A program made the translations under genes and the position numbers. Source: an uncultured Gammaproteobacteria bacterium (GTDB lineage Bacteria; Patescibacteriota; Microgenomatia; UBA10105; UBA927). Taken from it: 64,000 nucleotides of DNA. A model generated the notes under the pieces. It did not search any database. It had not been told where the DNA came from and worked only from the letters and a program-made list of their open reading frames with translations. This document shows positions 5,618 through 45,905 of the stretch, piece by piece. Each line of letters opens with the position of its first letter. Within the stretch, counting starts at the first letter, position 1. The stretch is taken from positions 8,879 through 72,878 of the forward strand of contig CAZNKB010000006.1 of the NCBI GenBank assembly GCA_964573695.1. Reading direction: 5' to 3'.

Positions 5618-5866
5618 ATGACAACCCAAGAAACAGGCCAGTTCGCCGCCGCACAACCAGAGCCCCTTCAGGATCCGAAGGAAACCCCTCCTGAAGCTCA
5701 CGAAGGACAAATGACCACAGATCAGGTCGGTCCCAAAGAAACGAAAATTGTCATGGAGGTTGTGGACATGCGGATTGAATTCATCCAAAAACGCAAGCAC
5801 GAACGCACTATGGAACGCACGTTACGCTGGCCTATCCATAGCAACACCCCGAGAATTACTTTTTAG
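5618..5866 (+). CDS. small acidic hypothetical protein
   Basis: 82 aa, Pro/Glu-rich. Ends in PIHSNTPRITF, matching the tail of 4348-5535. 11 nt convergent overlap with 5856-8756. Confidence 0.4.
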   Translation: MTTQETGQFAAAQPEPLQDPKETPPEAHEGQMTTDQVGPKETKIVMEVVDMRIEFIQKRKHERTMERTLRWPIHSNTPRITF

Positions 5867-8756
5867 CCCGCCATACAATTATCCCGGGGATAATCAGGGC
5901 AAGAAATCCCAGATATTCCAAAGCTTGCGGGATGAACACGATGATAATTTTTTTGTCTGTCTGGTTAATCCTCCAGCCGTTCGCCCAATTATTGACGAGC
6001 ATGTGATTTTGCAGTGGTACCAGGTCGGTGGTGAATGCCCGCCAGCCAGGATCAAAAGATTGACTGAGTGTCAGCAGACTTTCTTTGTTCTTAGGAGTCA
6101 AATCTACAAAGTAGAGGCTGCTTATCGGGTGGGATACCCGGTCGGGGAGTGTCATCGTCGGTTTGTGTAGGCCGCTAAGATCAGTCAGAGGTGCCGCATC
6201 CATAGTCTGGAGCTGGACGGATAATAGATCATTGATACTTGTGTACTGATTATACGAAACGTTGGATAGCATAATGGTGAGCTCGACCTCTGAGGGGAAT
6301 GTGGGCGGCAGGTAAAAATAATCGTATGCAACGCCCAAATGTTTAGGAACTGTTATGTCTAGACCGGCGGGCCGGCCTTTGTTGATGACAGAAAGCATAA
6401 GCGGTTCACCGGCAATATGGCGTGAGCCAACGCCAATAACGAAAGGATTGGTCGTATTGACGTTGTCCAAGATAAAGGACTGACAAAGCTTGGTGTTTGT
6501 GGCTGTAAGGCGCAAAAGGTTTTCTGAAGCACTTCTCGAGCTGTAAGAATATGTATCTCCCGGTGTGTTTTGGCAGGGCACTGCCTCTGATATGGTCGCA
6601 GCCACGGTTGCGACACGCAAAAACGAGAGGTTTTCCAACGTTTCGCCCGACAAAGGTGTGCCTCGTTTGGAAAACTCCGTGGCGTCAGGATCGGTCAGGT
6701 CAGCGGGTGCTTGGGGATCAGAAACGTACGCAGATGTACTGGCAAATAGTTGATCCAGATCGTTGTATGGTTGTCTCTTGGGGATATTTGGCGGATTCTC
6801 TATTATAGATACGTCTGGTGTATCGAAACTGTTCCGCTCAAATACCGTAATGGGTAATAATTTTTCTGCGGAAAATGTGGTGAGCTTGGTATAGTCAGAT
6901 GCGGTTTCGAGATAGGAGCCGAAATCAAGTGACGACAAAAATCCTTTTTGGCTTCTGCAATGGGTGATATTTTGATCATAGAGTACGTATCGCACACCGT
7001 ATTTATCAAATACCCGTTCGACTCGTTCGTAATCCTGTTGTCGGAGTGCCGAGCTTAGTTCCCAGAAATAATTTTCATTATTGTGGCTCCACACGTCAAA
7101 TGCCCGCGCCATGAACGGGTGGTTGACCCCGTACCAGAGGAATCCTGATCCGAAGTATCCCCATAACTGGTTGTACCAGCCTTCTGCACAATCCTGGGGG
7201 AAGTCTGCAATTCTTCCGAACGGCAACGTATTGAGATACCGGGTAAGGAGTTGATATTGCCGCGGCATCGTAACGAATAGTTTTTGATACACGAGTTTTC
7301 CCTGCCACAGAGGAAGAGCAAAAAAGATAAGCGACGCCACACACGCAGGAACTACAATCCGGGATATGGTGTCGCGTGTTATTCGCGTCAATAGGTTTAT
7401 GAGTACGTAGAGTCCTACTCCGATAAGCAGGCTATAGTGGAAGGCCAGCCCGATGCCAAATTTTGTAAATGTTGTCCTGAATGCCTGGGTGAGTTCGGGT
7501 GAGTATGATTGGATGAGTTGTAGCCCTGTCGAAAAAGGAGGAGTGGCTATGGCGATATTGCCGAAAAAATAGAGTGATGATAGGGCAAATCCCCAAGTAA
7601 GCGGTGTACGCCGTCTACCAAGGCCTAGGAATAATCCCAAGACTGCAAGTCCAAAGAACGTATATCCGATTGCGACAATGCCGGGATTTGCGTGGTGTTC
7701 TTTCCAAGGGGCAAGAATCGCCCCTCCCAGTTCGTTGCTTTCCCATAGGAAGCTTTTGAGAAGTGCCGTATCGGCGAGCGTGCCGTATTGGATGCTTTTG
7801 GCGACGAACTGCGGTGTAGTAGTTATATTGTTATATGCATTGATATAGTCTTTGGATTGGGTCAACGTGAAGTATGCCACCGGGCCTAGCCAATAGGCAT
7901 TCACGCAGATGACACACGCCCATATGATGAGAAACGTCCGGAGGATCTTTTTTTCAAACCGGTGCAGCAAAAGGTATACGCCCGTGATGATAAGGAGTGA
8001 AACGCCGTACGAAGCAAATACTGCCGGGATAAATCCCTGGATCGAGCTTATCCCGAGTGCCATGCAAAAGAAGGCGATGCGCTTGGGTGTGACGCGTTCA
8101 AGGAGTGATAAGAGTCCATAGGTGAGCCAGGGCAGCGCTGCAAAGTGGACGGTAAACGCTTCAAGCGGGAGGTAGAACATTTGTATTGTGCCAAGGTTCG
8201 TGAGGTAGTAAATGCTCGTGACCAAGCCTATATAGGTGCCGAGATTGGCATGAAATTTTCTCGATCCGCTGCTCGCGAGTTTATTTGATGCAGAAGGTAC
8301 ATGCCGATAATCCGTCTGCATACGCTGATCAACTTCGGAGCTCGGGAAGCGATCTTCGAAAATTTCATGACTTCCTCGTACATTTTTGTGTCTCTCAAAG
8401 ATATGGTGTAATAATTTTTGACTAACCAATAGCATTCCCAAGCCCCCAAGGTAATAACAGAGGAATATGAACACACTGCGTACCAGATGTTGCGGGATAG
8501 CAATCGACAACAATCCGATAATGAGTGTGTGCGGCAGGGTCGCGGCAAAGCCATGTCCGCCGACAAGACCAGCGCCATAATATTCCTGCCAGCCGGCAGT
8601 AAGACCTCGCAAAAGGTTTAAGGGGATATTGAGTTCCGGATACAGTCCGTCCCAACCCATAAGTGACTGGTCGATAGAAAAATTGGCCGCAATAATAGTG
8701 CCCACGAAGATGTGATAGAGGATAAGTACTATGGTTTTTGGCGTCAGTTTAATCAT
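5856..8756 (-). CDS. Large polytopic membrane protein, GT-C-fold glycosyltransferase-like (YfhO/AftD-like architecture), with a large extracytoplasmic C-terminal domain and a terminal TM
   Basis: 966 aa. More than 10 predicted TM helices in the N-terminal ~600 aa, a soluble ~330 aa domain, and a final TM (LGFLALIIPGIIVW). Its start overlaps the upstream GT-C gene by 8 nt (ATGATTAA). Confidence 0.55.
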   Translation of the reverse strand: MIKLTPKTIVLILYHIFVGTIIAANFSIDQSLMGWDGLYPELNIPLNLLRGLTAGWQEYYGAGLVGGHGFAATLPHTLIIGLLSIAIPQHLVRSVFIFLCYYLGGLGMLLVSQKLLHHIFERHKNVRGSHEIFEDRFPSSEVDQRMQTDYRHVPSASNKLASSGSRKFHANLGTYIGLVTSIYYLTNLGTIQMFYLPLEAFTVHFAALPWLTYGLLSLLERVTPKRIAFFCMALGISSIQGFIPAVFASYGVSLLIITGVYLLLHRFEKKILRTFLIIWACVICVNAYWLGPVAYFTLTQSKDYINAYNNITTTPQFVAKSIQYGTLADTALLKSFLWESNELGGAILAPWKEHHANPGIVAIGYTFFGLAVLGLFLGLGRRRTPLTWGFALSSLYFFGNIAIATPPFSTGLQLIQSYSPELTQAFRTTFTKFGIGLAFHYSLLIGVGLYVLINLLTRITRDTISRIVVPACVASLIFFALPLWQGKLVYQKLFVTMPRQYQLLTRYLNTLPFGRIADFPQDCAEGWYNQLWGYFGSGFLWYGVNHPFMARAFDVWSHNNENYFWELSSALRQQDYERVERVFDKYGVRYVLYDQNITHCRSQKGFLSSLDFGSYLETASDYTKLTTFSAEKLLPITVFERNSFDTPDVSIIENPPNIPKRQPYNDLDQLFASTSAYVSDPQAPADLTDPDATEFSKRGTPLSGETLENLSFLRVATVAATISEAVPCQNTPGDTYSYSSRSASENLLRLTATNTKLCQSFILDNVNTTNPFVIGVGSRHIAGEPLMLSVINKGRPAGLDITVPKHLGVAYDYFYLPPTFPSEVELTIMLSNVSYNQYTSINDLLSVQLQTMDAAPLTDLSGLHKPTMTLPDRVSHPISSLYFVDLTPKNKESLLTLSQSFDPGWRAFTTDLVPLQNHMLVNNWANGWRINQTDKKIIIVFIPQALEYLGFLALIIPGIIVWRAKK

Positions 8757-10179
8757 AGTTTACATAAAATCCGTCTGTTTCAGGGTTGAGTATCGAGGCT
8801 TTTGATGCTGTTTGGAATGGGCCGCAGGCAGCGATCACCATGTCAATATCACGGGCAAGGACATAGGCTTTTTTGCACACTCCGTTTGTCTTGTATATGG
8901 CAGTTGTCGGATGATCCAGGTCGGTGTGATTCGTGCGGTCGGTAAATATTTCCGGAGTCGGTGAATAGATTGCTGGCCACCGATCAAGGACAAATCTGGC
9001 TATGGGTGAGTGCGTGAGTGTATCGCTAAATCTTGGAAAGATATAGTGATTAAGTGACAGAATATATATTTGGGATATCAGGGTGAGAATAAGTATTCCG
9101 GTCCAAAGTGGTTTTGGCTTGGCGTAGCGCACTGCGGCGGCGATAAGAAACGGCACCATGACAATCGCATGCCGGCTCGGTCCGAATCCCGATGTACCGT
9201 AATGCCACGCCGGGTTGGTTTGAAAGGCAAGTAGGGTTGCGAACCCTATGAGCGTAAGCCAGAGCACCTTTTTGTCGTGTCGTATGGTGGCCATTATGCT
9301 CACGATTCCTGTGATAACCAACATCGGTGCATACCAAAATACGCCTATATTGAGATCAAAAAACTGTTCAAAAAGTTTTCTGATGTGTGCGTTTTGTAGC
9401 CCAAAACCGTTTATAGTAGTCCATCCGTCTTCTAGCATTGTCCAGGGGGTAAAAGATCCGAATATGATGAAGTTATAAAGATAAGGCAATCCCGCAAGGG
9501 ACAAGGTTACTGTTGTACGTATCACGACTTTTTTGTCTACTATCCTGTGTTTTTGTAGTACTCCAAAGAGGAGCATCCCCATGGTGGTGATTATCATCGG
9601 TTGGGATTGCCAGGATGCGATAGCCGTGAGTAGTGCCGCAGGAAATATTCCTCCTTCATAAAACCAAATGAGTGAGATGAGAAGCAGCGACAGGGAAAAT
9701 ACATCCGGCCCCGGCCACCAGAGGAAAAAAATGATCGGCGAGGTAAGAGTAAGCAGGACAAACGTCATTTGGCGCGAAGGCTCCTTCATAAACCGGAGCA
9801 ATATCGTGGTAACCATTCCAAAAAAAATAAGCGTGTTGAACAGAGAAAACACATGGAATTCCGGCATACGGAGCTGCTCTAGAACCAGGCGCACGGGGAC
9901 AAGGAGCAGTGAGTATGCGACGAAGTGCACCGGATATCGGTTTCCGTCGAGCCCGGGTACATAATACCCGGGATTCGAGAAATATTCGGGATGTAGCCGT
10001 TGGGATAGAAGTGTTTGGTCTTCGGGCGTGAGGACCACGGTTCCGTGTCGTAAGACCGACTCGGTGATGCCGAAGTATTCGACAATATCGCCAGCAGGTT
10101 CGGGAGGCTGGGAGGCCAAAAATGCTCCGAAGATGAGCCCTGCAAGAAGCAGGGTAAGAGCGAGCGGGAATAATTTCAT
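8749..10179 (-). CDS. GT-C family glycosyltransferase (PMT/ArnT-like, GT39/GT83-type)
   Basis: 476 aa polytopic membrane protein. Has a signal-anchor, a first-loop acidic motif GDIVEYFGITE, multiple TM helices and a C-terminal soluble domain. Operonic with the GT4 gene upstream and the GT-C gene downstream. Confidence 0.6.
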   Translation of the reverse strand: MKLFPLALTLLLAGLIFGAFLASQPPEPAGDIVEYFGITESVLRHGTVVLTPEDQTLLSQRLHPEYFSNPGYYVPGLDGNRYPVHFVAYSLLLVPVRLVLEQLRMPEFHVFSLFNTLIFFGMVTTILLRFMKEPSRQMTFVLLTLTSPIIFFLWWPGPDVFSLSLLLISLIWFYEGGIFPAALLTAIASWQSQPMIITTMGMLLFGVLQKHRIVDKKVVIRTTVTLSLAGLPYLYNFIIFGSFTPWTMLEDGWTTINGFGLQNAHIRKLFEQFFDLNIGVFWYAPMLVITGIVSIMATIRHDKKVLWLTLIGFATLLAFQTNPAWHYGTSGFGPSRHAIVMVPFLIAAAVRYAKPKPLWTGILILTLISQIYILSLNHYIFPRFSDTLTHSPIARFVLDRWPAIYSPTPEIFTDRTNHTDLDHPTTAIYKTNGVCKKAYVLARDIDMVIAACGPFQTASKASILNPETDGFYVNYD

Positions 10180-10189
10180 AGGCAGTATT

Positions 10190-11545
10190 TCAAGTATATC
10201 GTATTACAGCGCGTGTGCTTAGGGAAATGGCGGGAGAAAATATGATATCCTCGTACCCTTTGGCGACCTTGCCGTACGATCGGGAAGAGCGAAGATTGGT
10301 CGCCATGGCCGCGAGTTTGGTTTTACGGCCGTTTATAAGCACGTCGTGGGTCATATCGATAATGGACTGCGGATACAGATCAAACGTGATGTCGCTGGTT
10401 TTGAGTCCTGCGTCGTTTAGTTGCCGTACGAAATCCTCGCTGTGAAACATCTCTGCCAGAGGGCGCGATATGATAAACGGTTTTTTGTAGGAGAACACGA
10501 GAGAGAGTACTCCTGATGCCGTCATATAGTGGCGGTAAGGAAATACAACCAAATCAGCTGCCGAAAAATACGTCGCGATATCTTTTTGGGGCACGTATCC
10601 GGTAAGTGTGATGTGATTGCTGGTGCGGACAACTTGGCGCACGTCGCGGAAGAAATTCTGGTAATAATGTCGGTTTGCAAGCGTCGGGCTTTCGCCGCCG
10701 GCGATAATGATGTGTACTTTTTTACCAAGCATTTTTTGGACACGGGCAAATGTCCGCGCAAAGATATCAGCGCCCTTGAACCAATTGATGTACCCGAAAA
10801 ACATGATGACGTGGTCACGCGCAGGGATACCGAGTTTTTTGCGGGCGAGTTTCGTGTCTATCGGCTTTAGGTTGGTGTCTACGCCATGCGGCACCGAAAC
10901 CGCATTTACCCAGGGAGCGAGGCTTTCCAGCTTTTCTTTAAGCGATGCCTCCAGTACGATGACCCGTGTTGAAACAAATGCCAGAATTCGGTAAAAAGTG
11001 TGGAATAGCAAATTGTAGATGTTCCCGATAAACTGGTCTTTGGGGCCACTTCCAAGACCTACGTGACCCTTAAGTTTCATGACATCGTCAACCACGTGAT
11101 GAAGGGTCACAAACGTCCGGTACTTGAGCATCCTTAGGAGTCCCAAAAACACGAGCCCGAGAGACGAAACGAATGGGTTGCCGTACATGGCAAAATCATA
11201 CTGTGCGAGCAGTGAGGTAGTGAGCGGGAACAGACGGATAGTTCGATAGATATCGAGCCACATGTCCGCTTTGCCGTGTCTGTAACATCGTATGACCAGA
11301 ACATGGTCTTCTGTATAAGCCTCCGGTTGTGAGTCGATATCGCAAAGTACGATGACACGGCGATCAAGATTTTTGAGCACGTTTTTGGTGTATGAGGCGA
11401 CCCCTGTTTTGCCGGTCGAATACGTTTCTCCCCGTTTCGGGTAGGGAGAAACCACGACAAGCGTATCGGGGTTGTTGTACCGTTTTATGGTCGTATTTGA
11501 TATGGTAGGCATACGATTCATACCAGGTAGTGAAATTTCGACCAT
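10190..11545 (-). CDS. GT4 family (group 1) glycosyltransferase
   Basis: 451 aa. C-terminal GT-B motifs HIIIAGGESP ... TGYVPQKDIATYFSAADLVVFPY. First gene of the minus-strand GT operon. Confidence 0.75.
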   Translation of the reverse strand: MVEISLPGMNRMPTISNTTIKRYNNPDTLVVVSPYPKRGETYSTGKTGVASYTKNVLKNLDRRVIVLCDIDSQPEAYTEDHVLVIRCYRHGKADMWLDIYRTIRLFPLTTSLLAQYDFAMYGNPFVSSLGLVFLGLLRMLKYRTFVTLHHVVDDVMKLKGHVGLGSGPKDQFIGNIYNLLFHTFYRILAFVSTRVIVLEASLKEKLESLAPWVNAVSVPHGVDTNLKPIDTKLARKKLGIPARDHVIMFFGYINWFKGADIFARTFARVQKMLGKKVHIIIAGGESPTLANRHYYQNFFRDVRQVVRTSNHITLTGYVPQKDIATYFSAADLVVFPYRHYMTASGVLSLVFSYKKPFIISRPLAEMFHSEDFVRQLNDAGLKTSDITFDLYPQSIIDMTHDVLINGRKTKLAAMATNLRSSRSYGKVAKGYEDIIFSPAISLSTRAVIRYT

Positions 11546-11672
11546 TGCATTTTTTACGCTGTCGGAATTTCAGGCTCCTTTTTTAAACTGATTGTCTATA
11601 TATCAGGTCGTCTATTCGACGTGCAATGAACGAAAGCGTGTCGAAATTCTACTACCTGGCATATAGTTTTTT

Positions 11673-11712
11673 CATTACCCGGCCCTGATTGGACAGGGAG
11701 GGCCGGGTAATG
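11673..11712. repeat. Perfect 14 bp stem hairpin (CATTACCCGGCCCT / AGGGCCGGGTAATG)
   Basis: Exact inverted repeat with a 12 nt loop, in the GT operon upstream region. T-run on the 5' side and A/T-rich on the 3' side. Confidence 0.5.
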
Positions 11713-11864
11713 AAATATATTATTTGCGTTGTCCTGAACAGAGAAGTGTTTCTCTTTTCGGGACAACGGCATACAGGGATTGTAAAACTACAAAAAAGAT
11801 CGAAGCATAAAAGCTTCAAAATTTAATGCAGTCTACAATTGTAGCCATTTGTCCGACCAATCCT

Positions 11865-11889
11865 GGCCGAGGGTTTGTAGCCCTCGGCC
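11865..11889 (-). terminator. Hairpin GGCCGAGGG-TTTGTAG-CCCTCGGCC downstream of the 11913-13121 gene
   Basis: Perfect 9 bp GC-rich stem, 24 nt after the stop of the minus-strand gene. The U-tract is weak. Confidence 0.35.
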
Positions 11890-11912
11890 AGTTTGTTAGT
11901 TGGTCAGCCAGG

Positions 11913-13121
11913 TTATGGCTTGCAGGTGAATGAGGCTTCCTCAAAGTTCAACTGCTCCAGCAAATAAGCGTCATCGGCAAAGACCGAAACGGCGCCATTG
12001 GCGGCGGTCCACACATCAAACCATCCCGGGCCTCCGGGGTGGGTCAGGTGGTGAAAACCATTGCCTTTGCTGTTGAAGACCCATGCTCCGCCGTCCCAAT
12101 CAGGCTCAGTCCAGAACGAAGGTTCATCACCTCCGAGAATGGCTGTAGCCATGACGGTGCTGGTGGGGCAAGTGGCATCGAGTTCGGGCTGAACCCAGAG
12201 ACCGCGGAGGTTCAGGTTTTTGCCCGGCACGGTGCCATAGCGGGGGTCCTGGCGGAACCCGTAGTTGAATTCGCGCGCCATGAGCGTGACGGCATCGTGA
12301 ACCCATTGTTGGTCTGCGCTGGTGTAGGTTTCCAACTGTCGAATCGTCGCGCCGTACACCCACATGCCCTTATGCGGACCATAGTTCACCGAGACCTTGC
12401 CGTTGGCTTGGGTCACCGTGTACTCGAAGTTATCGAGGAACGGCTGGTAGTACAGACCGATACCAACAGCCTGCACGACCCATTCGCCGCACCCTTCCCA
12501 GGGTACTGCCAAACCATTCTTCAACGGCTTGACGCCGTCATCGGACCAGCCATGGGCGGCGGTCAGTTGGGCGTTGGTGAGGCACGCGGTGGTTGTCGTA
12601 TAGTTCAGGTCCACATTCTGCGCTTCCGCGGGCGCTTCGGTGAAGCTTGCGGGTGCGGGCAGAACTTTGCCGGTACACGGGATGACAACCGGACCAACCT
12701 GAACGTAGGGCGCGCCGCTGGCACAAGACGACACAACCGTGTTGTAGACCGTCTGCTCATCAGAAGGCGCTACCACGGTGGCAGTCGGGTTGCCGAACAA
12801 CAAATACGCCGTAGGCGTGCTGGTCGGAAGTGCGGGCAACGTGGCGGTTGACGTGAACGTCGGGATGCCGGTTTCCGCCGCGTAGGTCGCCGCGATATTC
12901 GTCTGCACGATTTGACCGCTGGCAAGGGTATTGGTCGGTCCAGGACCCTGCGTCGCCGTGCCGTTGACGTTAACATACGCCTGCGTCAATGCGGACTTCA
13001 TCGTCGCGGTGGCGTACGAGTCGTCAATGACTTCCTGAGGAGTCGTCCCCAGGCAAGCCAGTGTGACCGCCAAAATCATGAAGGCGGCTGCAATGATGTT
13101 GAACGTGCGATTTTTGAACAT
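11913..13121 (-). CDS. secreted hypothetical protein (signal peptide)
   Basis: 402 aa. N-terminal MFKNRTFNIIAAAFMILAVTLACLG signal. Thr-rich segments. Confidence 0.55.
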   Translation of the reverse strand: MFKNRTFNIIAAAFMILAVTLACLGTTPQEVIDDSYATATMKSALTQAYVNVNGTATQGPGPTNTLASGQIVQTNIAATYAAETGIPTFTSTATLPALPTSTPTAYLLFGNPTATVVAPSDEQTVYNTVVSSCASGAPYVQVGPVVIPCTGKVLPAPASFTEAPAEAQNVDLNYTTTTACLTNAQLTAAHGWSDDGVKPLKNGLAVPWEGCGEWVVQAVGIGLYYQPFLDNFEYTVTQANGKVSVNYGPHKGMWVYGATIRQLETYTSADQQWVHDAVTLMAREFNYGFRQDPRYGTVPGKNLNLRGLWVQPELDATCPTSTVMATAILGGDEPSFWTEPDWDGGAWVFNSKGNGFHHLTHPGGPGWFDVWTAANGAVSVFADDAYLLEQLNFEEASFTCKP

Positions 13122-13356: not shown

Positions 13357-14271
13357 CTATTCCCGGCACGTGGTCGTGATGAGATCCAGATAGACGTTGG
13401 TGCCGTTGACGATGACTTCGAAGTGACCGCCAGTGACGTCCATCTCCACCAGTTGGAGCGAGGTTCCTGCTGGAACCGTTCCCAGCTGGGTGTTGGTCGC
13501 ATCAAAGTACGGGACATCTGCGTCGCCATCGTGCATAACGAACCAGGTGTACCAGTTGCCGTCGCGTGTATAGCCCTCTGAGCATTGCCCATGGCTGTAG
13601 TCGTTGAGCGCGATGTAGACTCTGGCCGTGCTGGTGACGTAGGTCACGCCGTCGTAAGTGACATGACTCTGATCAACGTAGGTTACGTCAGTGCCGTTTT
13701 CGACCCACATGACAGGTTGATAGGTCTCCGTCAGAAGCAGTGTCCCCATGCCATTAGCATTGACCAACTTGTAGTCTTTGCCGGCTTTGGGAGCCAGTGC
13801 CGCTGTGTGGGTTTTGTTCCAGACGCCGATTTCCAGCCGCGGGTCATAGTCGCCAATCAACTGATCGCAGGCAACTTTCACGCCGCCGATGTACATGGAT
13901 TCGGGGCGATAGCCGACAACGAGTGACTGGCACAGGTCGTGGGCTTTCAACTCCGCCATGATTACGGCGTTAGGAATCATGCGCACGTCGCCAAGGGACA
14001 AATTCGGCGGGTCGCAGGTTATTGAGTCCGCGTTGCTTGACGCCGACGCCACGGTGATTTCGTACTTGCCGAAGTCCGGGGCATCCGTCGATTCGCCGTA
14101 GTCGCAGACGATTTGCTGGGTCGTCTTGGTCGGTTCAGGCGTGGCAGTCTGGGTCGGTGCTTCGGTTGCCATCGTTTCCACGGGTTGCGCAGGCGCAATC
14201 GGTGTAACGTTTCGGCACGCGAGCAAGAGCGCAATCGCAAGCATCAGGCCTGCAAATTTGTTCTGCTTCAT
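13357..14271 (-). CDS. putative lipoprotein with a Thr/Pro-rich linker
   Basis: 304 aa. Signal MKQNKFAGLMLAIALLLAC (lipobox-like LLAC), then PAQPVETMATEAPTQTATPEPTKTTQQ. Confidence 0.55.
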   Translation of the reverse strand: MKQNKFAGLMLAIALLLACRNVTPIAPAQPVETMATEAPTQTATPEPTKTTQQIVCDYGESTDAPDFGKYEITVASASSNADSITCDPPNLSLGDVRMIPNAVIMAELKAHDLCQSLVVGYRPESMYIGGVKVACDQLIGDYDPRLEIGVWNKTHTAALAPKAGKDYKLVNANGMGTLLLTETYQPVMWVENGTDVTYVDQSHVTYDGVTYVTSTARVYIALNDYSHGQCSEGYTRDGNWYTWFVMHDGDADVPYFDATNTQLGTVPAGTSLQLVEMDVTGGHFEVIVNGTNVYLDLITTTCRE

Positions 14272-14291: not shown

Positions 14292-15317
14292 TTACTGTTG
14301 CGGGCTCGGAAACGCGCCGCTCATATTGACGAGAACCGTTAGGTCATCATCAACAGTGAAATACGATGAGCCGTTCTCTGTCCGCAGATAGGTGCCGTGG
14401 ACGCAGTATTCCATCGGATCGTCAAAACCGTAGAAACCGACCTCGCCATCCGCGCAGACGTAATAGTTCCAGCCGGGATGCATCTCTTCGATGGAAACCC
14501 ATGCATAGCCGCCAGGAACATACCTCACATCCAGCGTGTAGGCGGTGTCATCATACAGCACGCGATACTTGTCCTTGTTGAGCGTGGTCGTCGGAATGCA
14601 CTTCTGAGTTTGATTGTTAATCAGAAGTCTTTCGCCATGCTGGCTCCAATCGCCTTCAATGAGAGACAGGTCAATGGCGCTCGGAAAGAGCCAGATATCG
14701 GCTTGCGGGATATTCACGCATTGCAGATACTGATTGCCGTTTTCCTGGTTTTCCCATGTAATGAGCGGCGCCTGCGGGAGGGGCGCGACATTCGCAGTCT
14801 GGCTTTTGACGGTGACGCTTGTGGTGCCGATGACGCTCCATGTGTCGCTCGTACAGAGTATCGAATACTCGTCTTCCACTGTCTGCGGGTAGACCGTCCA
14901 CTCGCTTCCAGCTTCCGAATATCTGCCTTCGCTGATGATTTGTTTGCAGGTCGTGCTTTCCAACTTGTCGTTTGCCTCATTGATGAGGTCCACATCCGCG
15001 GTCAGGGCGACGGGGTCGTTTTCATAGATCCACGTTCCTGCTTCGAGTCGAACATAGCCGCGCACGAACTGGTTGTTGATGTACGCCGAGAACGTATCGT
15101 TCGACGTGCATTTGAAATCGCGAACCGTAGATGCATTCACGACTTTATAGTCCGTGTTGCCGCAGTCGTTGAGAACAAACGGATCAGCGGTCATCTCGGT
15201 AGCGACAGGCGTTTCAGTAGCCTTAGGGGCTCCGCCGCCGCACGCCGCGAAAACGAACGAGCAGATAACTAACAGAACGAGCAGACCGTACTTCAACTTG
15301 CTATTTTTTGTTGCCAT
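14292..15317 (-). CDS. putative lipoprotein
   Basis: Start reassigned to the ATG at 15317 (MATKNSKLKYGLLVLLVICSFVFAACGGG), which has GGAGAAATTAATCATG SD spacing. The track ORF extends to 15479 with an unlikely N-terminus. Confidence 0.55.
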   Translation of the reverse strand: MATKNSKLKYGLLVLLVICSFVFAACGGGAPKATETPVATEMTADPFVLNDCGNTDYKVVNASTVRDFKCTSNDTFSAYINNQFVRGYVRLEAGTWIYENDPVALTADVDLINEANDKLESTTCKQIISEGRYSEAGSEWTVYPQTVEDEYSILCTSDTWSVIGTTSVTVKSQTANVAPLPQAPLITWENQENGNQYLQCVNIPQADIWLFPSAIDLSLIEGDWSQHGERLLINNQTQKCIPTTTLNKDKYRVLYDDTAYTLDVRYVPGGYAWVSIEEMHPGWNYYVCADGEVGFYGFDDPMEYCVHGTYLRTENGSSYFTVDDDLTVLVNMSGAFPSPQQ

Positions 15318-15567
15318 GATTAATTTCTCCTTGTTGACTAGGGTTGCCGTCAGCCACAAGTGTGACCGATCGGTATGACTGATTTCCCTTGCGGGACGAA
15401 CGGGGTGAACGATTGAATTCTTTGTTTGGGTTGGTTTTCCTTTCCTTAGGTTGGATTGAAATTCCGTCAGATGATACATATCGGTGTGATAATGTATGTT
15501 TCCCCACTAGACGGATAGCTTGATAGAGCTAGATGTAAGAGATCCTTACTCCTCTTGATTAAATTGT

Positions 15568-18678: not shown

Positions 18679-19347
18679 TTAGGGTTTAATTGCTCCTTTC
18701 GCGAGAATCCCAAACCCAATGACAGCCAAAGCTAAAAATGGAAGCATATATGCGTAATCTTCGAATCCCGCAACAGGAAGGGTGGTTACACCCATAACTT
18801 TTGTCTGCACGCACATGCTGGCCGTATCCTGGTCGGATTGCCCGCCAGGGCCGGTGGCAGTTACCGTGTTGACGATGTCGCATGTGAGATCATTTTTGAA
18901 TGCAGAGGCGTCTTTGATTTTGACTAATACCCGATTATGGACGGTCGCTCCGGCTTTAAGATCCGAGATTTCGTACGTCAGTTTGTTTGCGTCAGCTTCG
19001 TATCTGCCAGGACCTGAGACAAACGTCACATACTCCGGAAACACATCGATTACCGTAACCGTGGCAAAGTTCACGTTGCTCGTGTTGGTCACCGCTATGT
19101 CGTATTCGACCTCGCTATTCACGGAATACGCGGCATCTGAACTCGTGATGTTTTCAACGAACGTATATGCGTTTTGGGCTTGTCTCACTTTTTTGTTGAC
19201 GACAATTCTGTTTGGGGGACACTCTACGGTATTGCCGTATTGGTTTGTACACGTCGGTGTTTCGTTGTAGTCGGCAAGTACGGTTGGTGTAACCGCAAAC
19301 AATGCGGTTGCCGTTAAGAACAAAGAAATAGCTTTGATTGATTTCAT
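18679..19347 (-). CDS. Cell-surface protein with a DUF11-like repeat domain and a C-terminal sortase sorting signal (LPVAG + TM + basic tail)
   Basis: 222 aa. N-terminal signal MKSIKAISLFLTATALFAV. C-terminal ...TLPVAGFEDYAYMLPFLALAVIGFGILAKGAIKP. Confidence 0.65.
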   Translation of the reverse strand: MKSIKAISLFLTATALFAVTPTVLADYNETPTCTNQYGNTVECPPNRIVVNKKVRQAQNAYTFVENITSSDAAYSVNSEVEYDIAVTNTSNVNFATVTVIDVFPEYVTFVSGPGRYEADANKLTYEISDLKAGATVHNRVLVKIKDASAFKNDLTCDIVNTVTATGPGGQSDQDTASMCVQTKVMGVTTLPVAGFEDYAYMLPFLALAVIGFGILAKGAIKP

Positions 19348-19426: not shown

Positions 19427-20305
19427 TTAAATTTTTTGATCCTGGCTTTCTATGAGATCTGCGAATATAAGCAAACGCTGTGTCGTGCTTCCGGGAGGCC
19501 AGCAGGTTTGTAAAATGAGCCTACGAGCACCCCCTTGGGGCGCCAGGTAGGCGACAGCCGTGGGGTCGACGATCTGCTTACCGGTTATTTTGTAGGTGTA
19601 GCTCGCTCCCTTGTAAAACAAAACAACCATGTCGTTCTCTTCCAGATTTTTGAGGAGGTAAAATACGGCATTTAGATCACCCACGAACCAATCGTAATTG
19701 GTGGAGTGGGAAAAGAGGAATACGGTGCCGTCCTCGTTTGGGAAGTAGGAGAGCGAAGAGTGAGCTATACCCTTTTGGAGCGCTGCCAAGTACTCTCCCG
19801 GTTTGGTCGGATTGACAGCCGGAATTACCGCTGCATTGACCCCGATTTTCGGGATAACGAGCGAAAACTCTTTGTTTACCGGATCAATTGAGGCTCCGTC
19901 GGGGGTTTTAAGCGGGTCAAAAACCGCTGGAACTGCCTGTTGAGATGAGGCGACATCTGAAGCATGTTGAGCCTGTTTTGTGCCTGTCAGTCGGGATAGC
20001 TGTGTATTAGCCTCTGCAATGCCAGCTATAACATCGGCTTTGAATCCCGGCCAGGCGTGCTGAGCCTGAATAAGGGCATATTTCGTTTCGAGTCGTATGC
20101 GGGGTGTCAGAGGCCCTGTGAGTCCTCCAAGTGCCAGTGCTATAAGTCCCAATCCCACCAAATGTAGCCCCGATGATTTGTTGCGGTTATGTGAGATTGT
20201 AGATTGGTGTTTTCGTTCGCGTAGGACCGTAAGCGACGAAAGATCGCCGAGAGCGATTTGAGGCTGACTTTGGGTCCATTCAAAGATAATTCCGGTGGGT
20301 TTCAT
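19427..20305 (-). CDS. sortase (transpeptidase) family protein
   Basis: 292 aa. N-terminal TM anchor. Motifs: His in LFSHSTNYDW, catalytic Cys in RLILQTCWPPGS (TLxTC-like), downstream Arg in QRLLIFA. Immediately upstream of the LPVAG substrate gene. Confidence 0.7.
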   Translation of the reverse strand: MKPTGIIFEWTQSQPQIALGDLSSLTVLRERKHQSTISHNRNKSSGLHLVGLGLIALALGGLTGPLTPRIRLETKYALIQAQHAWPGFKADVIAGIAEANTQLSRLTGTKQAQHASDVASSQQAVPAVFDPLKTPDGASIDPVNKEFSLVIPKIGVNAAVIPAVNPTKPGEYLAALQKGIAHSSLSYFPNEDGTVFLFSHSTNYDWFVGDLNAVFYLLKNLEENDMVVLFYKGASYTYKITGKQIVDPTAVAYLAPQGGARRLILQTCWPPGSTTQRLLIFADLIESQDQKI

Positions 20306-21674: not shown

Positions 21675-24600
21675 TTACACGGCTTTCTTTTTGGCAAACG
21701 ACACTTGAAGTTTGTCCCCCGCAACGTCAATGCGATTTGCTTTCCACGATGGGTTGATCTTGCCGTTTAAGTGCGTGAGTACCAGATCATTGAAATGATC
21801 GAGGCTTTCATGAATTGATTTTTGCCATGGTCTGGCAAGGAGCGGCAAATGGAGGCTCAATGTGTCTTTCTTAACTATGAGGCCATGTGTGGGGTCGGTA
21901 ATGAGTGTCCCCGCAAACTGCGCTTCGCCGACGATTGTTTTGGCCTTCATGTCGGTAAGTTTTACCGTGTTGCCTTCGATTGTAATTTTTCCTCCGGTGA
22001 TCCGGGCCCCCGGTAGTTCGACCGAGGATCGGACGTAATCCATAAGTTCACCGGTGGTAAGTTGTACTGCTGCTTGGGTTTCGCGTGCCTTGTTCAATAC
22101 GTATGTAATACGATCTTCGACTCCTTCAGGGAGGCGCTCGGGAGCGCGAGGTGTCTCCGTTTGTATCGCGGGTGGTTCTGTCGGCTGTGCGTTTGTTACG
22201 TCGGGAGATGCGATGCTTGAGGCGACAGTTTCTGTCGGTGTTTCCGCTTCAGTTGGTTTTTCCGGTTGGTCGCCTGCTAATGTTTCGAGATGTTCGCGGG
22301 GCGATTCGGGTGCGTTCGGGACTGCGGCAACTACCTCTTGCGCTGCGGTTTTTGCAAAGCTCTCAATGTCCGGTGTGGCTGCCATATTGGCGCTGAGGTT
22401 GGTCATATCCGTTATGGTAATCGCACCGTCTTTGAGTTCGTAGGTGAGTCCGAGCGTATCCATGGTGCGTCCAAAATACGCATCAAATCGTGCGGGGTTG
22501 GAAGATTTGAGCGTCGGGTACATGTTGGCATACATATTGTTGATATGGGCCTCCATAGTTTCTTTGGTGAATTGTTCGTTGGCTTTTTTGGCCATGTCTT
22601 CCCAATGCATGTCTTTGTATACTTCGTTGTTTGCAAGCGGCACCGAGGGCTCTGCAAGTCCGAGTTGTTGGAGTTGCATATAAACGGTTTCCTTTGGATC
22701 CATGGTTGCCGCTAACGAAGGGAGAGAAACCGCGACATCCGGAGTTTTTCTGGCGTCCGTTAACATCCAGGCGACCTCCCGTTCTTCCATGAGTGGGGAA
22801 TTGGGGTTATATCCGCCGATAGCAGCTAAAGAACCAGACCGTACAGCAGTGTTTCCCTGAAATGCAGCGGGTACGCTTTGCGTTTCTCCGTGACGGACGA
22901 GGGCATCAAAGATTTCAAACGCACGGTGATGTGCGAATAACATCGGGTAGTTGGCATACGCGTCTTTCGGAAGTTGATATATGCCGCTGACGATATCAAG
23001 AGAAGGATTGGCATCAAATGTATCGATGATGCTGGATAGATACGTGGCTTCGACCGGGTTTCCTGTGCTGTTTTCGGCAATAAGCGAAACTTCCGGCGCG
23101 TCCGGAGGGCGACTTGCGACCAGTGACAATGCGTAGTTACTCAGGTCCCGTTTTATGCGTCCGGAGGTCGGAGGTTCTGCATAGGTATTGGTGATAAATT
23201 GCACCTGCATATCCGGATGATCCGCACGGAAGCGGTCAATTTCTGCTTTGGTGTCTCCTGGTAGTGTGGAGGTGACTGATTCTGCCGGCGGGGTCACGTT
23301 GGCTTCGTAGACGACAAATGCCACGCGCTTCGGATCAAGCGCGGATCCGTCGGCATTTGTTTGTTGCGCGTATGTACTGAGCCGCTGATATATCGTATTG
23401 CCGTTTTGTACCAGGGGAATCGAAACGATTGCTCGTGTGTCAGGCGAGAGGACCGGATTATCTTGAGCTTTGAGCGCTTCAAGTGTTTGTTGTTCTTCCG
23501 GTGTGAGGAGCGAAAGGTACCAATCAATTTCTTCCCGTTCATTGAGTTTTGCTTGCGGATTTTCGGTGAGCCTTGGTGACATACGGTTTGCCCGTGCTTC
23601 ACGGTTTAAGAATGTTTCTTCATAGCCAAACGGACTGATCATGGTTTCACCCGGGATCATCTGACCCATGAGCCCCTCTATGGGAGCGGCTTCGAGGACC
23701 TCTCTATACGGCAAGAAAATCGGTATCCATGGAAGTTCTCGCGCCGCTGCTCCCGGAGTGACAACCGTTTCTACATGGTACGGAATTTCCAGAGGGGCGG
23801 ATGCGAAAATTTTACCCGGCTCATCACTCTTGAATACCTCCGTAAGGGTAAACTGATGTATGGCATCGGTTTTTACCTCAGTTATGGGTGTGGGCACTAT
23901 CGGAGTCCCGACAAATGGCGACTCAGGGCTTTCGGGTAATCCAAGTTTTTCCATGAGAGGAGCTAATTCTGCCTGACTGGGTAAATCGGCATCCCGTCCG
24001 AAATAGCTCATCCGAAGGAGAAGGGCGTCGATTTTGTCCTGATCGGAGCCTTTTTCCAGGAGGTGTAACGCGTCCATAGGACTCTGGCCCGAAGCGACGA
24101 TGTCTTGATAATGTTTGATCGCCAGATCATTCATTTCTGAAAAGCGATGTACGGCTTCCGGACTAAACAGCTCCTTCGGCACATTGATATGCGCATCATT
24201 AGCGATATGGGCGATATCAAATTCTTTGACCGGCGTATCCCCGAATGTGGCATCGCGGAGGCGGGCAACGTGGTCATAGGGGTTGCTTCCGTTATCGCCG
24301 AAACTTACGTTCTGCGGGATTCCGTCGGCCGTATGCGGTACGTAATGCTGTTCATACAGACGGAAAAGATTCTTGATACCATTGGCACTCGCTACCCGAT
24401 GTTCACCACTGGATTTGTCGAGGAAATAATCCCAAAGTCCACCTTCCTGCAGATCACTACCTTTGATGTCGATCATGTCACCTGCATTAGCACTTTCCGG
24501 TGTGCCGGAAACAAATACACTTGTTGCAGGGAACGATTCGATCTTTGCAGGAATGATTTCCTGAGATTTCCACTCAAATCCATTGGCTTTTAGATCTGCC

Positions 24601-27600: not shown

Positions 27601-27617
27601 GGGATTGGTTCTGTCAT
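21675..27617 (-). CDS. giant hypothetical protein (1980 aa) with a low-complexity Pro/Glu/Ala/Thr segment and internal glycine-zipper hydrophobic helices
   Basis: Single uninterrupted ORF. Residues ~100-190 are PAAPAIKQETPAQIPQEPAASGETPTSQDKPTESPALSPETPAPATPEQHAPEAPTPEAV. Mid-protein hydrophobic segments VAIALSAVNFLKTAPFKAVASITGPLGSLTGGALAGGLFAGW and VKYGVKAGVVGAAVGAAFQGLAHIG. No enzymatic motif recognised. Confidence 0.6.
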   Translation of the reverse strand: MTEPIPPQNNPEIGKQQSIIVGETPIYLSQPQLIGGKDISYITILPAEKRSNDGVGSIVPLVKELSRKKGEEGKLVDKPLTNLNAFDEVPWDKISGLQWSDEQNATHMITKDMLTLEPQAPAAPAIKQETPAQIPQEPAASGETPTSQDKPTESPALSPETPAPATPEQHAPEAPTPEAVQQEPTPAKGAREILETLTEDPNVITIVGLKAYETRALDLADRSMQKLTHPQSAERTQATRNLWEKTKDAVANIENFAVTTWKQSIGGIYFHEKARQYYIDMLKAAETPFAEDAIRLAERRATDKYNAKLADSNFILRIGTKAVDWFKDKVGMRTTIQNIALEEIGTMRLTGEIKGLETFEREAKAVRARFGGDFDQADQFVRKQLGEKLEILDPAREEHKPLVEGIQSLLKQYASGEIADKAEFDARTKEFFKATLNNTRPDIFAEAELYSSSLYEVAETLRTKMSHEGGLANIDEAINSMQIRLGLGAMGEVTSLEPTAVEKGVGQIREIADWLNKQHVLVPMVFNEATIGSGVAIALSAVNFLKTAPFKAVASITGPLGSLTGGALAGGLFAGWREYGQLQKDYMTHLRERESGAQFTETQKRRNWFEKFAVKQRRADEMIATLQSSLYEGDTLKANLSDDELRASFATIADLHARKAVSETGPKRIGLIQYTNRESIESERSALDLTANKALADIESYLAGHTEQADLVLGGNTFAEFMEKLTVTQTQVLRQGAQSLDALDDPLKLTLNLVSSYAPEAEIMRRRWPFASKNLSGDEKALGLDAILEEFKSEAKIEAVKYGVKAGVVGAAVGAAFQGLAHIGTSDTVTRGAAELSDAANATGSSHVELSPPTGEHIISIGHNVYQLPKEMIVNPYTENGKVFYDAKLDISLIENLKGQEDVVLGTHLSEQQFKDALVKAGLSITEPHKAGEAVSSIHDVVTIPHLTTPGGEPLTAKLPEDYTLKYLDSSHHWQILNADKQIVSTVDFTQTGELQGTPAELAKLTADLKANGFEWKSQEIIPAKIESFPATSVFVSGTPESANAGDMIDIKGSDLQEGGLWDYFLDKSSGEHRVASANGIKNLFRLYEQHYVPHTADGIPQNVSFGDNGSNPYDHVARLRDATFGDTPVKEFDIAHIANDAHINVPKELFSPEAVHRFSEMNDLAIKHYQDIVASGQSPMDALHLLEKGSDQDKIDALLLRMSYFGRDADLPSQAELAPLMEKLGLPESPESPFVGTPIVPTPITEVKTDAIHQFTLTEVFKSDEPGKIFASAPLEIPYHVETVVTPGAAARELPWIPIFLPYREVLEAAPIEGLMGQMIPGETMISPFGYEETFLNREARANRMSPRLTENPQAKLNEREEIDWYLSLLTPEEQQTLEALKAQDNPVLSPDTRAIVSIPLVQNGNTIYQRLSTYAQQTNADGSALDPKRVAFVVYEANVTPPAESVTSTLPGDTKAEIDRFRADHPDMQVQFITNTYAEPPTSGRIKRDLSNYALSLVASRPPDAPEVSLIAENSTGNPVEATYLSSIIDTFDANPSLDIVSGIYQLPKDAYANYPMLFAHHRAFEIFDALVRHGETQSVPAAFQGNTAVRSGSLAAIGGYNPNSPLMEEREVAWMLTDARKTPDVAVSLPSLAATMDPKETVYMQLQQLGLAEPSVPLANNEVYKDMHWEDMAKKANEQFTKETMEAHINNMYANMYPTLKSSNPARFDAYFGRTMDTLGLTYELKDGAITITDMTNLSANMAATPDIESFAKTAAQEVVAAVPNAPESPREHLETLAGDQPEKPTEAETPTETVASSIASPDVTNAQPTEPPAIQTETPRAPERLPEGVEDRITYVLNKARETQAAVQLTTGELMDYVRSSVELPGARITGGKITIEGNTVKLTDMKAKTIVGEAQFAGTLITDPTHGLIVKKDTLSLHLPLLARPWQKSIHESLDHFNDLVLTHLNGKINPSWKANRIDVAGDKLQVSFAKKKAV

Positions 27618-32333: not shown

Positions 32334-32349
32334 TCGGCACGTTTGTATA

Positions 32350-33174: not shown

Positions 33175-33225
33175 GAATATGGATTATAGAAGAATATTTT
33201 TTGGTGGGCAACGATTACTACGCTT

Positions 33226-33690: not shown

Positions 33691-33698
33691 TAAATTTA

Positions 33699-45866: not shown

Positions 45867-45905
45867 ATAGATTCAAAGCCAGGCTTTGATGTAGAGGGGA
45901 GGGGT

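Follow-up and report, generated by a model that had tools for sequence, protein, structure and literature searches.

A conserved Patescibacteria gene cassette encoding one GT4-like and two GT-C-fold proteins, and its possible role in cell-surface glycan assembly

Patescibacteria (CPR) account for a large share of bacterial diversity. Their genomes are tiny, they are found attached to other cells and the chemistry of their envelope is almost unknown. In this work, we considered a minus-strand locus of one of these bacteria and asked what its three tightly packed genes might contribute to the cell surface. An earlier note on this DNA had described three co-directional genes within positions 5856-11545, with spacings of 10 nt and -8 nt, in a small genome, and had proposed that they form a lipid-carrier glycosylation module. 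The layout was confirmed by the list of open reading frames (ORFs) and by reading the junctions in the window, i.e. the whole stretch of DNA that was analysed (64 kb), and the assignment of the host to the Patescibacteria is consistent with a small genome. The three genes and their two junctions are:

10190..11545, minus strand: gene A, cytoplasmic GT-B glycosyltransferase, GT4-like according to Pfam, 451 aa as ORF
10180..10189, strand not applicable: A/B spacer of 10 nt (aatactgcct), read directly, with the TGA stop of A before it and the ATG of B after it
8749..10179, minus strand: gene B, polytopic membrane protein with a GT-C fold, 476 aa, no family by sequence
8749..8756, minus strand: overlap of the B stop and the C start, 8 nt ATGATTAA, read directly
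5856..8756, minus strand: gene C, AftD-like GT-C glycosyltransferase, 966 aa

The order A-B-C, the common strand and the tight spacing were kept in every related locus with enough flanking sequence, representing 24 species genomes of Patescibacteria, and additional contigs beyond these species-level genomes displayed the same synteny, in which stop and start codons overlap. Such recurrence indicates that the arrangement is not due to chance. Called genes of three other lineages (L001, L004 and L006) exhibited B/C overlaps of 14-23 nt, and the 8-nt overlap of the window is read here as translational coupling. Judging from sequence, A, B and C are both translationally coupled and co-inherited. 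The complete genomes that carry the cassette include CP066689.1 of Roizmanbacteria. A literature search for such a cassette in CPR returned nothing relevant. In the hydropathy analysis, no hydrophobic segment of A reached the transmembrane threshold, and hydropathy and structure models showed both B and C to be polytopic, as previously claimed. Extracytoplasmic parts, also expected for both, were recovered as a domain of ~450 aa in C, placed between the last of its N-terminal helices and a helix at the C-terminus, and, in B, only as a C-terminal domain of ~75 aa together with long loops.

The first gene had been called a GT4, and A indeed exceeded the Pfam thresholds for Glyco_trans_1_4 (46.4 bits, cutoff 27), Glycos_transf_1 (37.8 bits, cutoff 26.4) and Glyco_transf_4 (28.8 bits, cutoff 28.5). 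Its closest solved relative was the GT4 enzyme MshA (3c4q/3c48, E about 4e-5). Comparison with relatives places its true start probably at Met9 (ATGAATCGT, position 11521), which would give a protein of 443 aa. A is the best conserved of the three genes, with 86-87% identity to Gottesmanbacteria-like relatives, and contains a hydrophobic stretch at residues 123-140. One region sets it apart from canonical GT4 enzymes:

10475..10540, minus strand: A motif PYRHYMTASGVLSLVFSYKKPF, at the EX7E position of canonical GT4, located by alignment with four GT4s of the window

Both glutamates of EX7E are missing in A, whereas the four canonical GT4s of the same window read P..W.EPFGLV..EA at this position. 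EX7E was replaced by PYRH[YF]MTASGVLSLxFS in all 48 family members, among which P336, Y337, R338, S344, G345, S348 and S352 were invariant, and this type of motif was retained even in a GT4 subtype of other cassettes that is only 28-30% identical. Profile alignments of A to PDB entries ended exactly at the Pro of the motif. Lacking both glutamates, A may perform a chemistry that differs from that of ordinary GT4 enzymes.

For B, sequence searches of solved structures were empty, both with phmmer and with a profile of 56 sequences, so that its fold was revealed by structure prediction alone. Each of the 20 best structural neighbours of the high-confidence model was either a GT-C enzyme or a protein with the GT-C fold, Pmt4, Pmt2 and ArnT being among them; the best match was ALG12, to which B is at least as close as to PMT/ArnT. 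B had been described as a PMT/ArnT-like GT-C: the GT-C fold and these neighbours support that description, but by sequence B belongs to neither GT39/PMT nor GT83/ArnT. Weak matches to GT87 (the PimE family) were found in 3 of 56 B-family members, and the MIR domain was missing from both the Pfam matches and the model of B. Two regions of B were outstanding in their conservation:

10075..10092, minus strand: B residues 30-35 (GDIVEY), candidate catalytic acidic motif, defined by conservation, coordinates checked by translation
9169..9222, minus strand: B residues 320-337 (QTNPAWHYGTSGFGPSRH), most conserved loop, with Q320, N322, P323, G328, G331, G333, P334 and H337 invariant

In the first region, D31 was present in 56/56 sequences and E34 in 54/56, G30 and Y35 being invariant as well. 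The model places this motif in the first loop, directly after TM1 (helix 4-22) and at the start of the next helix (32-45). The second region includes the least confident part of the model (residues 328-331, pLDDT < 50); being most conserved yet least confidently modelled, this loop is probably a mobile substrate loop.

The third protein, announced as a GT-C-like membrane protein of ~1000 aa, had AftD as the best structural match of its high-confidence model. Its architecture can be divided as follows:

7302..8756, minus strand: C residues 1-485, transmembrane GT-C module (model helices, hydropathy, Pfam AftD match at residues 203-510)
8634..8657, minus strand: C residues 34-41 (GWDGLYPE), acidic motif of the first outside loop and catalytic candidate
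5949..7301, minus strand: C residues 486-936, extracytoplasmic part made of an alpha/beta domain and then one or more CBM-like beta-sandwich domains
5973..6062, minus strand: C residues 899-928 (QSFDPGW.A...VNNWANGW), C-terminal motif common to AftD
5859..5948, minus strand: C residues 937-966, single C-terminal membrane anchor helix (model helices 944-953 and 955-965; hydropathy 937-955)

The window protein scored 18.0 bits against Pfam PF11847 (GT-C_AftD), below the gathering threshold of 26, and sub-threshold matches to this family were found in 18 of 44 relatives (E ≤ 1, best E 4.4e-7). Using a profile of 57 C sequences, residues 899-928 aligned weakly (E 0.11) to positions ~1196-1255 of AftD (6w98/6wbx). 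At the sequence level, the relationship between C and AftD thus appears to be a distant one and not a curated membership. Neither phmmer with C nor a profile of the membrane module (22 sequences) retrieved any solved structure. Pfam YfhO (PF09586) matched neither C nor its sets of 9 and 44 relatives, closeness to YfhO being judged via Pfam only. The C-family profile collected over 5,000 representatives of clusters formed at 50% identity; the best 150 matches were all full-length relatives, and so exposed no bridge to named families, and the members examined had neither an informative name nor a Pfam domain. B and C are not paralogues, this possibility being rejected by an hhalign probability of 0.9%.

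A DE-type motif had been expected in the first extracytoplasmic loop of the membrane proteins. Acidic motifs do occur there in both, in the form of DxxE in B and Dx4E in C, and not as adjacent DE; in C, D36 and E41 of the motif W35-D36...E41 were invariant in 57 and in 44 further sequences. Basic residues are invariant as well, namely H85, H337 and R415 in B and R427 and K432 in C. In GT-C enzymes, the catalytic Asp lies at the tip of the first juxtamembrane helix (PMC12041525), and the corresponding location of the acidic residues of B and C was counted in favour of a catalytic role. From sequence position and predicted secondary structure, we infer that D31/E34 of B and D36/E41 of C are candidate catalytic residues. 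K39 and D41, which lie in the first loop of AftD, are essential to that enzyme, and its CBMs bind the glycan acceptor. A first-loop Asp is conserved in both proteins (D36 of C, D41 of AftD), though the empty search with the 22-sequence membrane-module profile leaves the equivalence of these two residues without alignment support.

The comparison with AftD of Mycobacterium and Corynebacterium (PF11847; 6w98, 6wbx) can be extended to the whole protein, since C likewise combines a GT-C module, an alpha/beta domain, CBM-like beta-sandwiches and a C-terminal membrane segment, and shares the C-terminal motif ...GW.A...VN.W..GW. Identity is nonetheless about 10-12%, and C is shorter (966 aa versus about 1,400 aa), has fewer beta-sandwich domains and ends in one kinked helix (944-965), whereas AftD has a four-helix bundle (TM13-16) that binds acyl carrier protein. 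The hosts differ as well, AftD being mycobacterial or corynebacterial and C belonging to Patescibacteria, which are not known to make arabinan.

Among pathways that pair both enzyme types, PIM/LM/LAM synthesis employs PimA/PimB (GT4, cytoplasmic, GDP-Man) and then PimE, MptA/B, EmbC and AftD (GT-C, periplasmic, polyprenyl-phosphate sugars). [quoted passage not shown] The eukaryotic lipid-linked oligosaccharide pathway is comparable, ALG2 and ALG11 (GT4, cytosolic) being followed by ALG3, ALG9 and ALG12 (GT-C, luminal), the last being the best structural match of B; identity is however about 13%, Pfam Glyco_transf_22 gave no match, and the host of the cassette is bacterial, so that the carrier would be undecaprenyl instead of dolichyl. 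In Gram-positive bacteria, wall polymers are modified by large GT-C enzymes whose carbohydrate-binding domains are extracellular (PMC8035078). The multi-component systems of these bacteria (CsbB/GtrB GT2, GtcA/GtrA flippase and YfhO/PMT_2 GT-C) likewise have a cytoplasmic glycosyltransferase gene adjoining a GT-C gene, whereas in the cassette a GT-B (GT4-like) partner takes the place of the GT-A/GT2 polyprenyl-phosphate sugar synthase, two GT-C genes that differ from each other stand in tandem, and a flippase gene and YfhO/PMT_2 membership are both missing. Finally, PMT (GT39) and ArnT (GT83) are no closer to B and C than other GT-C families are. Besides the difference between DxxE/Dx4E and DE, and the missing MIR domain, Pfam PMT (PF02366) and PMT_2 (PF13231) matched neither B nor C of the window (E ≤ 1) and none of 100 relatives (56 of the B family, E ≤ 0.1; 44 of the C family, E ≤ 1).

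The DNA upstream of A carries three further features:

11913..13121, minus strand: gene X, 402 aa, product secreted or tethered to the membrane, its linker rich in Thr/Pro/Ala and its C-terminal domain conserved and containing 4 Cys
11719..11912, minus strand: structured RNA of ~195 nt, leader or intercistronic, beginning 1 nt past the X stop and upstream of A
11546..11718, minus strand: lineage-specific hairpin-rich stretch from the RNA element to A

X is a frequent fourth member of the cassette: of 22 informative GTDB loci, 15 had a homologue of X directly upstream of the GT4 gene and in the same orientation, as did 6/6 metagenome loci. X had no match in Pfam, NCBIfam or PDB, and a meaningful NCBIfam hit was likewise missing for B, for C and for the neighbours of these genes. 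A signal peptide together with a Thr/Pro/Ala-rich linker is found in X and in two more ORFs upstream; the X linker of some lineages (L023, L016) is rich in Asp/Glu and not in Thr/Pro. Additionally, a DUF11/CLIPPER sortase substrate is encoded 2-7 kb upstream of the cassette in about 19 loci.

The segment 11719-11912 is a previously undescribed structured RNA with strong covariation. Its DNA is near-invariant in relatives whose flanking proteins are 52-87% identical, metagenome matches to its core lay between X and GT4 in 6/6 cases, and the covariance model recovered copies outside its training set, in the corresponding position of L021 (180 bits) and of L025 (110 bits). The element includes an internal hairpin plus U-tract. 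The structure has 67 pairs, with 97% of cells paired, and 14 pairs with compensatory changes, compared with 7.0 ± 1.4 in shuffled and 1-3 in slid controls. Rfam gave nothing at gathering thresholds for this segment, the only hits being chance hairpins (E of at least 0.03) far below them. The adjoining stretch 11546-11718 contains a perfect 17-bp hairpin (11673-11712) and a promoter-like site (11646-11675); some of its parts are shared with L009 only and others with L029 only, and it is missing in L010 and L021.

What, then, could this cassette do? We propose, with a probability of roughly 0.55, that it is a Patescibacteria-specific operon by which a cell-surface glycan is made or decorated via lipid-linked intermediates, from the inside out. 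At the inner membrane face, A would take one or more sugars from an activated donor in the cytoplasm and add them to an acceptor anchored by a lipid, either a glycolipid or a glycan linked to polyprenyl-(di)phosphate. Once flipped, the glycan would be extended or branched on the outer face, first by B and subsequently by C, with polyprenyl-phosphate sugars supplied by enzymes encoded elsewhere. D31/E34 of B and D36/E41 of C would act as catalytic or acceptor-activating residues, and the beta-sandwich domains of C may hold a polymeric glycan acceptor, as in AftD. X would probably be an extracytoplasmic accessory or product-handling factor and the structured RNA probably a cis-regulatory element of the operon. 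The idea of a lipid-carrier glycosylation module thus gains support from the GT4 Pfam matches, the GT-C folds and the acidic motifs, while the lipid linkage of the donor, the kind of sugar and the choice between a protein and a glycan as acceptor are parts that we infer; the CBM-like domains of C and the binding of the glycan acceptor by the CBMs of AftD support a glycan. Donor supply is assumed, since neither the 64-kb window nor the conserved neighbourhood encodes a GT2 polyprenyl-phosphate sugar synthase or a flippase of the GtrA, Wzx or MATE type; the called genes of L001, L004 and L006 likewise include neither this synthase nor a small flippase, and the window showed no DPPR synthase of the UbiA type. 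Functional coupling of a cytoplasmic glycosyltransferase to a GT-C protein is suggested by a natural fusion, within a large glycosyltransferase cluster, of a cytoplasmic GT2 to a C-like membrane domain.

An alternative reading is PMT-like protein O-glycosylation, in which B and/or C would move a polyprenyl-phosphate sugar to Ser/Thr of secreted proteins, i.e. X, neighbouring Thr/Pro-rich lipoprotein-like proteins or the sortase-anchored DUF11 protein, with A supplying or extending the glycan. Pmt4 and Pmt2 do figure among the best structural matches of both B and C, and candidate targets are close at hand, whether X (linked to the cassette in 15/22 loci), the two other upstream ORFs with a signal peptide and a Thr/Pro/Ala-rich linker, or the DUF11/CLIPPER protein. 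However, X is not beside the cassette in 7/22 loci, and its Asp/Glu-rich linker in L023 and L016 makes a conserved O-glycosylated linker unlikely; PMT/PMT_2 membership and the MIR domain are missing, and the CBM-like domains and AftD likeness of C point to a glycan acceptor. We consider this explanation unlikely, though worth keeping in mind.

The missing GT2 synthase could alternatively mean that the system is self-contained, the EX7E-less A being itself a polyprenyl-phosphate sugar synthase or primer maker that replaces the GT2 of classical three-component systems, with B and C consuming its product outside. It would fit with A being the most conserved component, with the retention of its PYR...S-G...S motif even in the divergent subtype and with the hydrophobic stretch 123-140, which could dock A on the membrane, and the GT2 fusion ties a cytoplasmic glycosyltransferase to this very GT-C. 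But the GT2 of that fusion is closer to the chain-building EpsE and TuaG than to GtrB or DPM1, the gene for the synthase may simply lie in another part of the genome and we know of no GT-B-fold polyprenyl-phosphate sugar synthase, so this option seems quite doubtful to us. Its boldest extension must be taken as speculation, and as a whole has slightly less in its favour: a lineage-specific, self-contained surface-glycan machine of Patescibacteria, in which A would make a lipid-linked primer or donor. Outside the cell, a lipoglycan or wall polysaccharide would be polymerised by two uncurated GT-C families, including a 'mini-AftD' that does not depend on ACP, and its handling would fall to the Cys-rich X. 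The ~195-nt leader, as a new riboswitch-like RNA, would switch the whole unit by sensing a precursor or envelope signal.

It is very unlikely that the cassette works en bloc in the manner of OST, A helping to build a polyprenyl-diphosphate-linked oligosaccharide that C (or B) would transfer whole to a protein or another acceptor: the motif WWD[YWF]G occurred in 0/101 C-family sequences, Pfam STT3 gave no match, and an OST reading was rejected on the missing WWDYG motif together with the Foldseek ranking. Least credible is a role of one or both membrane proteins as GT-C-fold scaffolds without catalysis, comparable to PIG-U or GAB1, or in some function other than glycosyl transfer, such as transport or polymer export, given that the first-outside-loop acidic residues are invariant or nearly so, that true glycosyltransferases score much higher, that the genes are tightly coupled to a GT4-like gene and that membrane transporter families, whose matching in place of GT-C similarity had been named earlier as what would refute the glycosylation module, gave no match apart from noise-level hits to SMR and TIGR04002 (NCBIfam), on which ground a transporter reading was rejected.

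Coming back to the proposed inside-out glycan operon, it would not represent a new principle, as a GT-B acting inside followed by a GT-C acting outside is well established in mycobacteria and in eukaryotic N-glycan assembly. It does offer handles for tests, namely D31 and E34 of B, D36 and E41 of C, the PYR motif of A, X and the covarying leader RNA. Recognising both membrane proteins would moreover provide a functional label for thousands of 'hypothetical proteins'. Finally, the coupling of C to a second uncharacterised GT-C and to an atypical GT4 argues for an investment of these bacteria in an extracytoplasmically assembled glycan, which could serve host attachment or envelope integrity.

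The locus and the elements preceding it are listed below by window position.

5856..8756, minus strand: gene C, 966 aa, AftD-like GT-C membrane protein (ORF list)
8749..10179, minus strand: gene B, 476 aa, GT-C-like polytopic membrane protein (ORF list)
10190..11545, minus strand: gene A, 451 aa, GT4-like protein (ORF list)
11546-11718: lineage-specific, hairpin-rich DNA that separates the RNA element from A
11719-11912, minus strand: structured RNA (~195 nt) after the stop of X and upstream of A (conservation and covariation)
11913..13121, minus strand: gene X, 402 aa, Cys-rich protein, ORF directly upstream of the RNA element and A

The earlier note had described three minus-strand genes within 5856-11545, with a 10-nt spacer and an 8-nt overlap. 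The ORF list and a direct reading of the junctions agree, and this observation is therefore correct as written: the TGA of A is followed by 10 nt and the ATG of B, and the octamer ATGATTAA is common to the TAA of B and the ATG of C. The gene 3' of C is convergent and a 367-nt non-coding stretch lies upstream of A, for which comparison with relatives indicates Met9 (11521) as the probable true start.

One genome per species was scanned, yielding 24 loci, and tblastn and HMM searches found the order and strand of A, B and C identical in every locus with enough flank; among called genes of three other lineages, B and C overlap by 14-23 nt. The C profile retrieved 5,123 cluster representatives at E<=1e-3 and 1,599 at E<=1e-30. 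No Pfam domain or informative name was found among B and C homologues, save the GT2 domain of one fusion protein (P0193). Taxon-labelled homologues of the three proteins belong to Patescibacteria (i.e. Gottesman-, Roizman-, Shapiro-, Woese- and Giovannonibacteria), with two kinds of exception: one A homologue labelled as a Nitrososphaeria archaeon, and several cassette-bearing MAGs labelled Gammaproteobacteria or Pseudomonadales, presumably by mislabelling. GTDB representatives titled 'uncultured Gammaproteobacteria' or 'Pseudomonadales' occur at ten of the compared loci (L011, L015, L017, L018, L020, L021, L023, L024, L026 and L030); these titles, too, look erroneous. Gottesmanbacteria-like MAGs stand closest, in keeping with the small genome proposed previously.

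Protein A exceeded the Pfam thresholds for Glyco_trans_1_4, Glycos_transf_1 and Glyco_transf_4, no transmembrane segment was found in it, and among solved structures the GT4 enzyme MshA comes closest. It is thus GT4 by domain, yet without the EX7E signature: alignment with four ordinary GT4 genes of the window, which read P..W.EPFGLV..EA in this region, gave PYRH[YF]MTASGVLSLxFS for A and 48/48 sampled relatives, neither glutamate position holding Glu. This is why the A-MshA alignments end exactly at the Pro preceding the signature. A PYR...S(G/F)..S pattern is kept in a GT4 subtype of some cassettes that is 28-30 % identical to A. Identity to the closest relatives reached 86-87 % for A, 68 % for B and 60-64 % for C, so that A, the most conserved of the three, is under strong constraint and not a decaying gene. 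In some cassettes (L017 5347-7837 and L018), the GT4-like gene is duplicated in tandem as two 395-aa copies of a divergent subtype, likewise without EX7E. The window holds a second glycan gene cluster (45033-54338, plus strand), comprising a WecG/TagA-family GT, four canonical GT4 genes, all with EX7E, and a GT5 starch-synthase-like gene.

In B, the first loop helix after the first transmembrane segment (residues 4-22) begins with the motif G30-D31-I-x-E34-Y35; its G30, D31 and Y35 never vary, and 54 of 56 sequences have E34. This is the place of the catalytic aspartate in GT-C enzymes (PMC12041525). The loop Q320-H337 combines the highest conservation with the lowest confidence in the predicted model and may resemble the mobile substrate loops of other GT-C enzymes. 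No relationship between B and C was found at the profile level.

Protein C scored 18 bits against Pfam GT-C_AftD, below the threshold of 26, and weak matches to this family were found in 18 of 44 diverse C-family members (best E 4.4e-7), the same 44 giving no match to YfhO, PMT or STT3. The C-terminal motif GW.A...VNNW.NGW of the C-family profile aligns to the AftD C-terminus (E 0.11). First-loop D36 and E41 are invariant in 101 sequences; in AftD, first-loop K39 and D41 are essential. The predicted model (pLDDT 91.1) comprises an N-terminal helical membrane module (1-485), an alpha/beta domain, beta-sandwich domain(s) and one C-terminal helix. AftD is longer (about 1,400 residues versus 966) and has more beta-sandwich domains, and its four-helix bundle binding acyl carrier protein is absent from C, which ends in the single helix. 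An insertion of ~40 aa (window 8277-8387, C residues ~124-160), which all close homologues lack or have in a much shorter form, is the sole low-confidence part of the model (pLDDT <50 at residues 130-152).

Upstream of A, X combines a signal or lipobox-like N-terminus, a Thr/Pro/Ala-rich linker (Asp/Glu-rich in some lineages) and a conserved 4-Cys C-terminal domain, with no match in Pfam, NCBIfam or PDB sequences. An X homologue directly precedes the GT4 gene in 15 of 22 informative species loci and in 6/6 metagenome loci. Two further minus-strand ORFs (13357-14271 and 14292-15479) have a signal or lipobox-like N-terminus and a Thr/Pro-rich linker; they lack a family match and are poorly conserved even among the closest relatives. 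A DUF11/CLIPPER (isopeptide-domain) protein adjoins a sortase gene (18679-19347 and 19427-20305, minus strand) and ends in a sortase sorting signal (LPVAG, hydrophobic helix, KGAIKP); in about 19 related loci a DUF11 homologue recurs at 2-7 kb upstream of the cassette, which suggests a conserved cell-surface neighbourhood. The 1,980-aa ORF at 21675-27617 (minus strand), without Pfam match, probably encodes a giant surface protein. Elsewhere (31704-34343 and 35012-35509), two adenylate-kinase-like paralogues flank a voltage-gated-type ion channel gene and are followed by a nucleoside diphosphate kinase gene, and region 58000-62000 (GC 0.565-0.589 versus about 0.48 elsewhere) carries ORFs without Pfam match.

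Compared with shuffled sequence, the whole 367-nt X-A spacer folds much more strongly (z = -11.9). Over its first ~195 nt (11912 to 11719, operon strand), the DNA hardly varies among relatives, even though their flanking proteins share only 52-87 % identity. A 20-mer from the core of this element occurs once in the window and gave six metagenome hits, 6/6 between X and GT4. A covariance model built from six sequences recovered, at the corresponding site, two more divergent copies from outside its training set, in L021 (180 bits) and the Woesebacteria-labelled L025 (110 bits), whose cassette proteins are 40-47 % identical to those of the window. In the eight-sequence alignment, itself fitted to the model, 7 helices and 67 pairs were obtained, with 97 % of cells paired and compensatory double changes in 14/67 pairs, against 7.0 +/- 1.4 in shuffles (0/500 reaching 14) and 1-3 in slid controls. 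The G-U pairs are consistent with the operon strand, and no Rfam match was found. In two loci (L010 and L021), 8-10 nt separate the end of the RNA from the GT4 start codon, which marks it as a predicted operon leader or intercistronic element. Within it, a U-run comes after an internal hairpin; the RNA may act as a riboswitch-like leader, as an attenuator or in intercistronic processing. Within 11546-11718, which includes a perfect 17-bp hairpin (11673-11712), one piece is common only to L009 and another only to L029, none being found in L010 or L021; these pieces look like small palindromic insertions.

The best-supported reading of the locus is an inside-outside glycan assembly line, B and C working as putative GT-C glycosyltransferases. 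A would glycosylate a lipid-anchored acceptor at the cytoplasmic face, and its product would be flipped across the membrane; once outside, it would receive more sugars from B and C, which would draw on polyprenyl-phosphate donors while the CBM-like domains of C keep hold of a polymeric acceptor. The same logic operates in eukaryotes with ALG2/ALG11, then ALG3/9/12. Mycobacteria likewise use PimA/PimB, then PimE and AftD (PMC12041525). P0193 (L008 2087-6283), a 1,398-aa natural fusion of an EpsE/TuaG-like GT2 domain with a C-like GT-C membrane domain, stands in a large GT cluster with four more GT2 genes, one GT4 gene and one faint PIG-V-like gene, and supports the coupling of a cytoplasmic GT to a C-type GT-C. 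One rival is PMT-like O-glycosylation of X or other secreted proteins; B and C showed no sequence membership in PMT/GT39, PMT_2/GT83, YfhO or STT3, so that of the PMT/ArnT-like, GT-C-like reading proposed in the earlier note the GT-C likeness held and the PMT/GT39 and PMT_2/GT83 membership did not. Another takes A itself as a donor synthase; no polyprenyl-phosphate sugar synthase or flippase was found encoded in the 64-kb window. OST-like en bloc transfer is a further rival, set beside the missing STT3 relationship, and non-catalytic scaffolds are the last, set beside the conserved first-loop acidic residues of B and C.

Fold and logic are already known, and the A-B-C locus differs in composition from the classical three-component system (GT2, flippase and GT-C). 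What is new is B, without a curated sequence family, C as a distant, sub-threshold AftD relative, an unusual cytoplasmic partner (A) beside two GT-C genes, the fixed order GT4, GT-C, AftD-like GT-C, often with X in front, and the RNA associated with the operon. GT-C enzymes in CPR bacteria are no great surprise to a specialist; with so large an unannotated family, an AftD-like protein outside Actinobacteria and a covarying leader RNA, however, this locus is a useful, directly testable entry point to CPR envelope biology.
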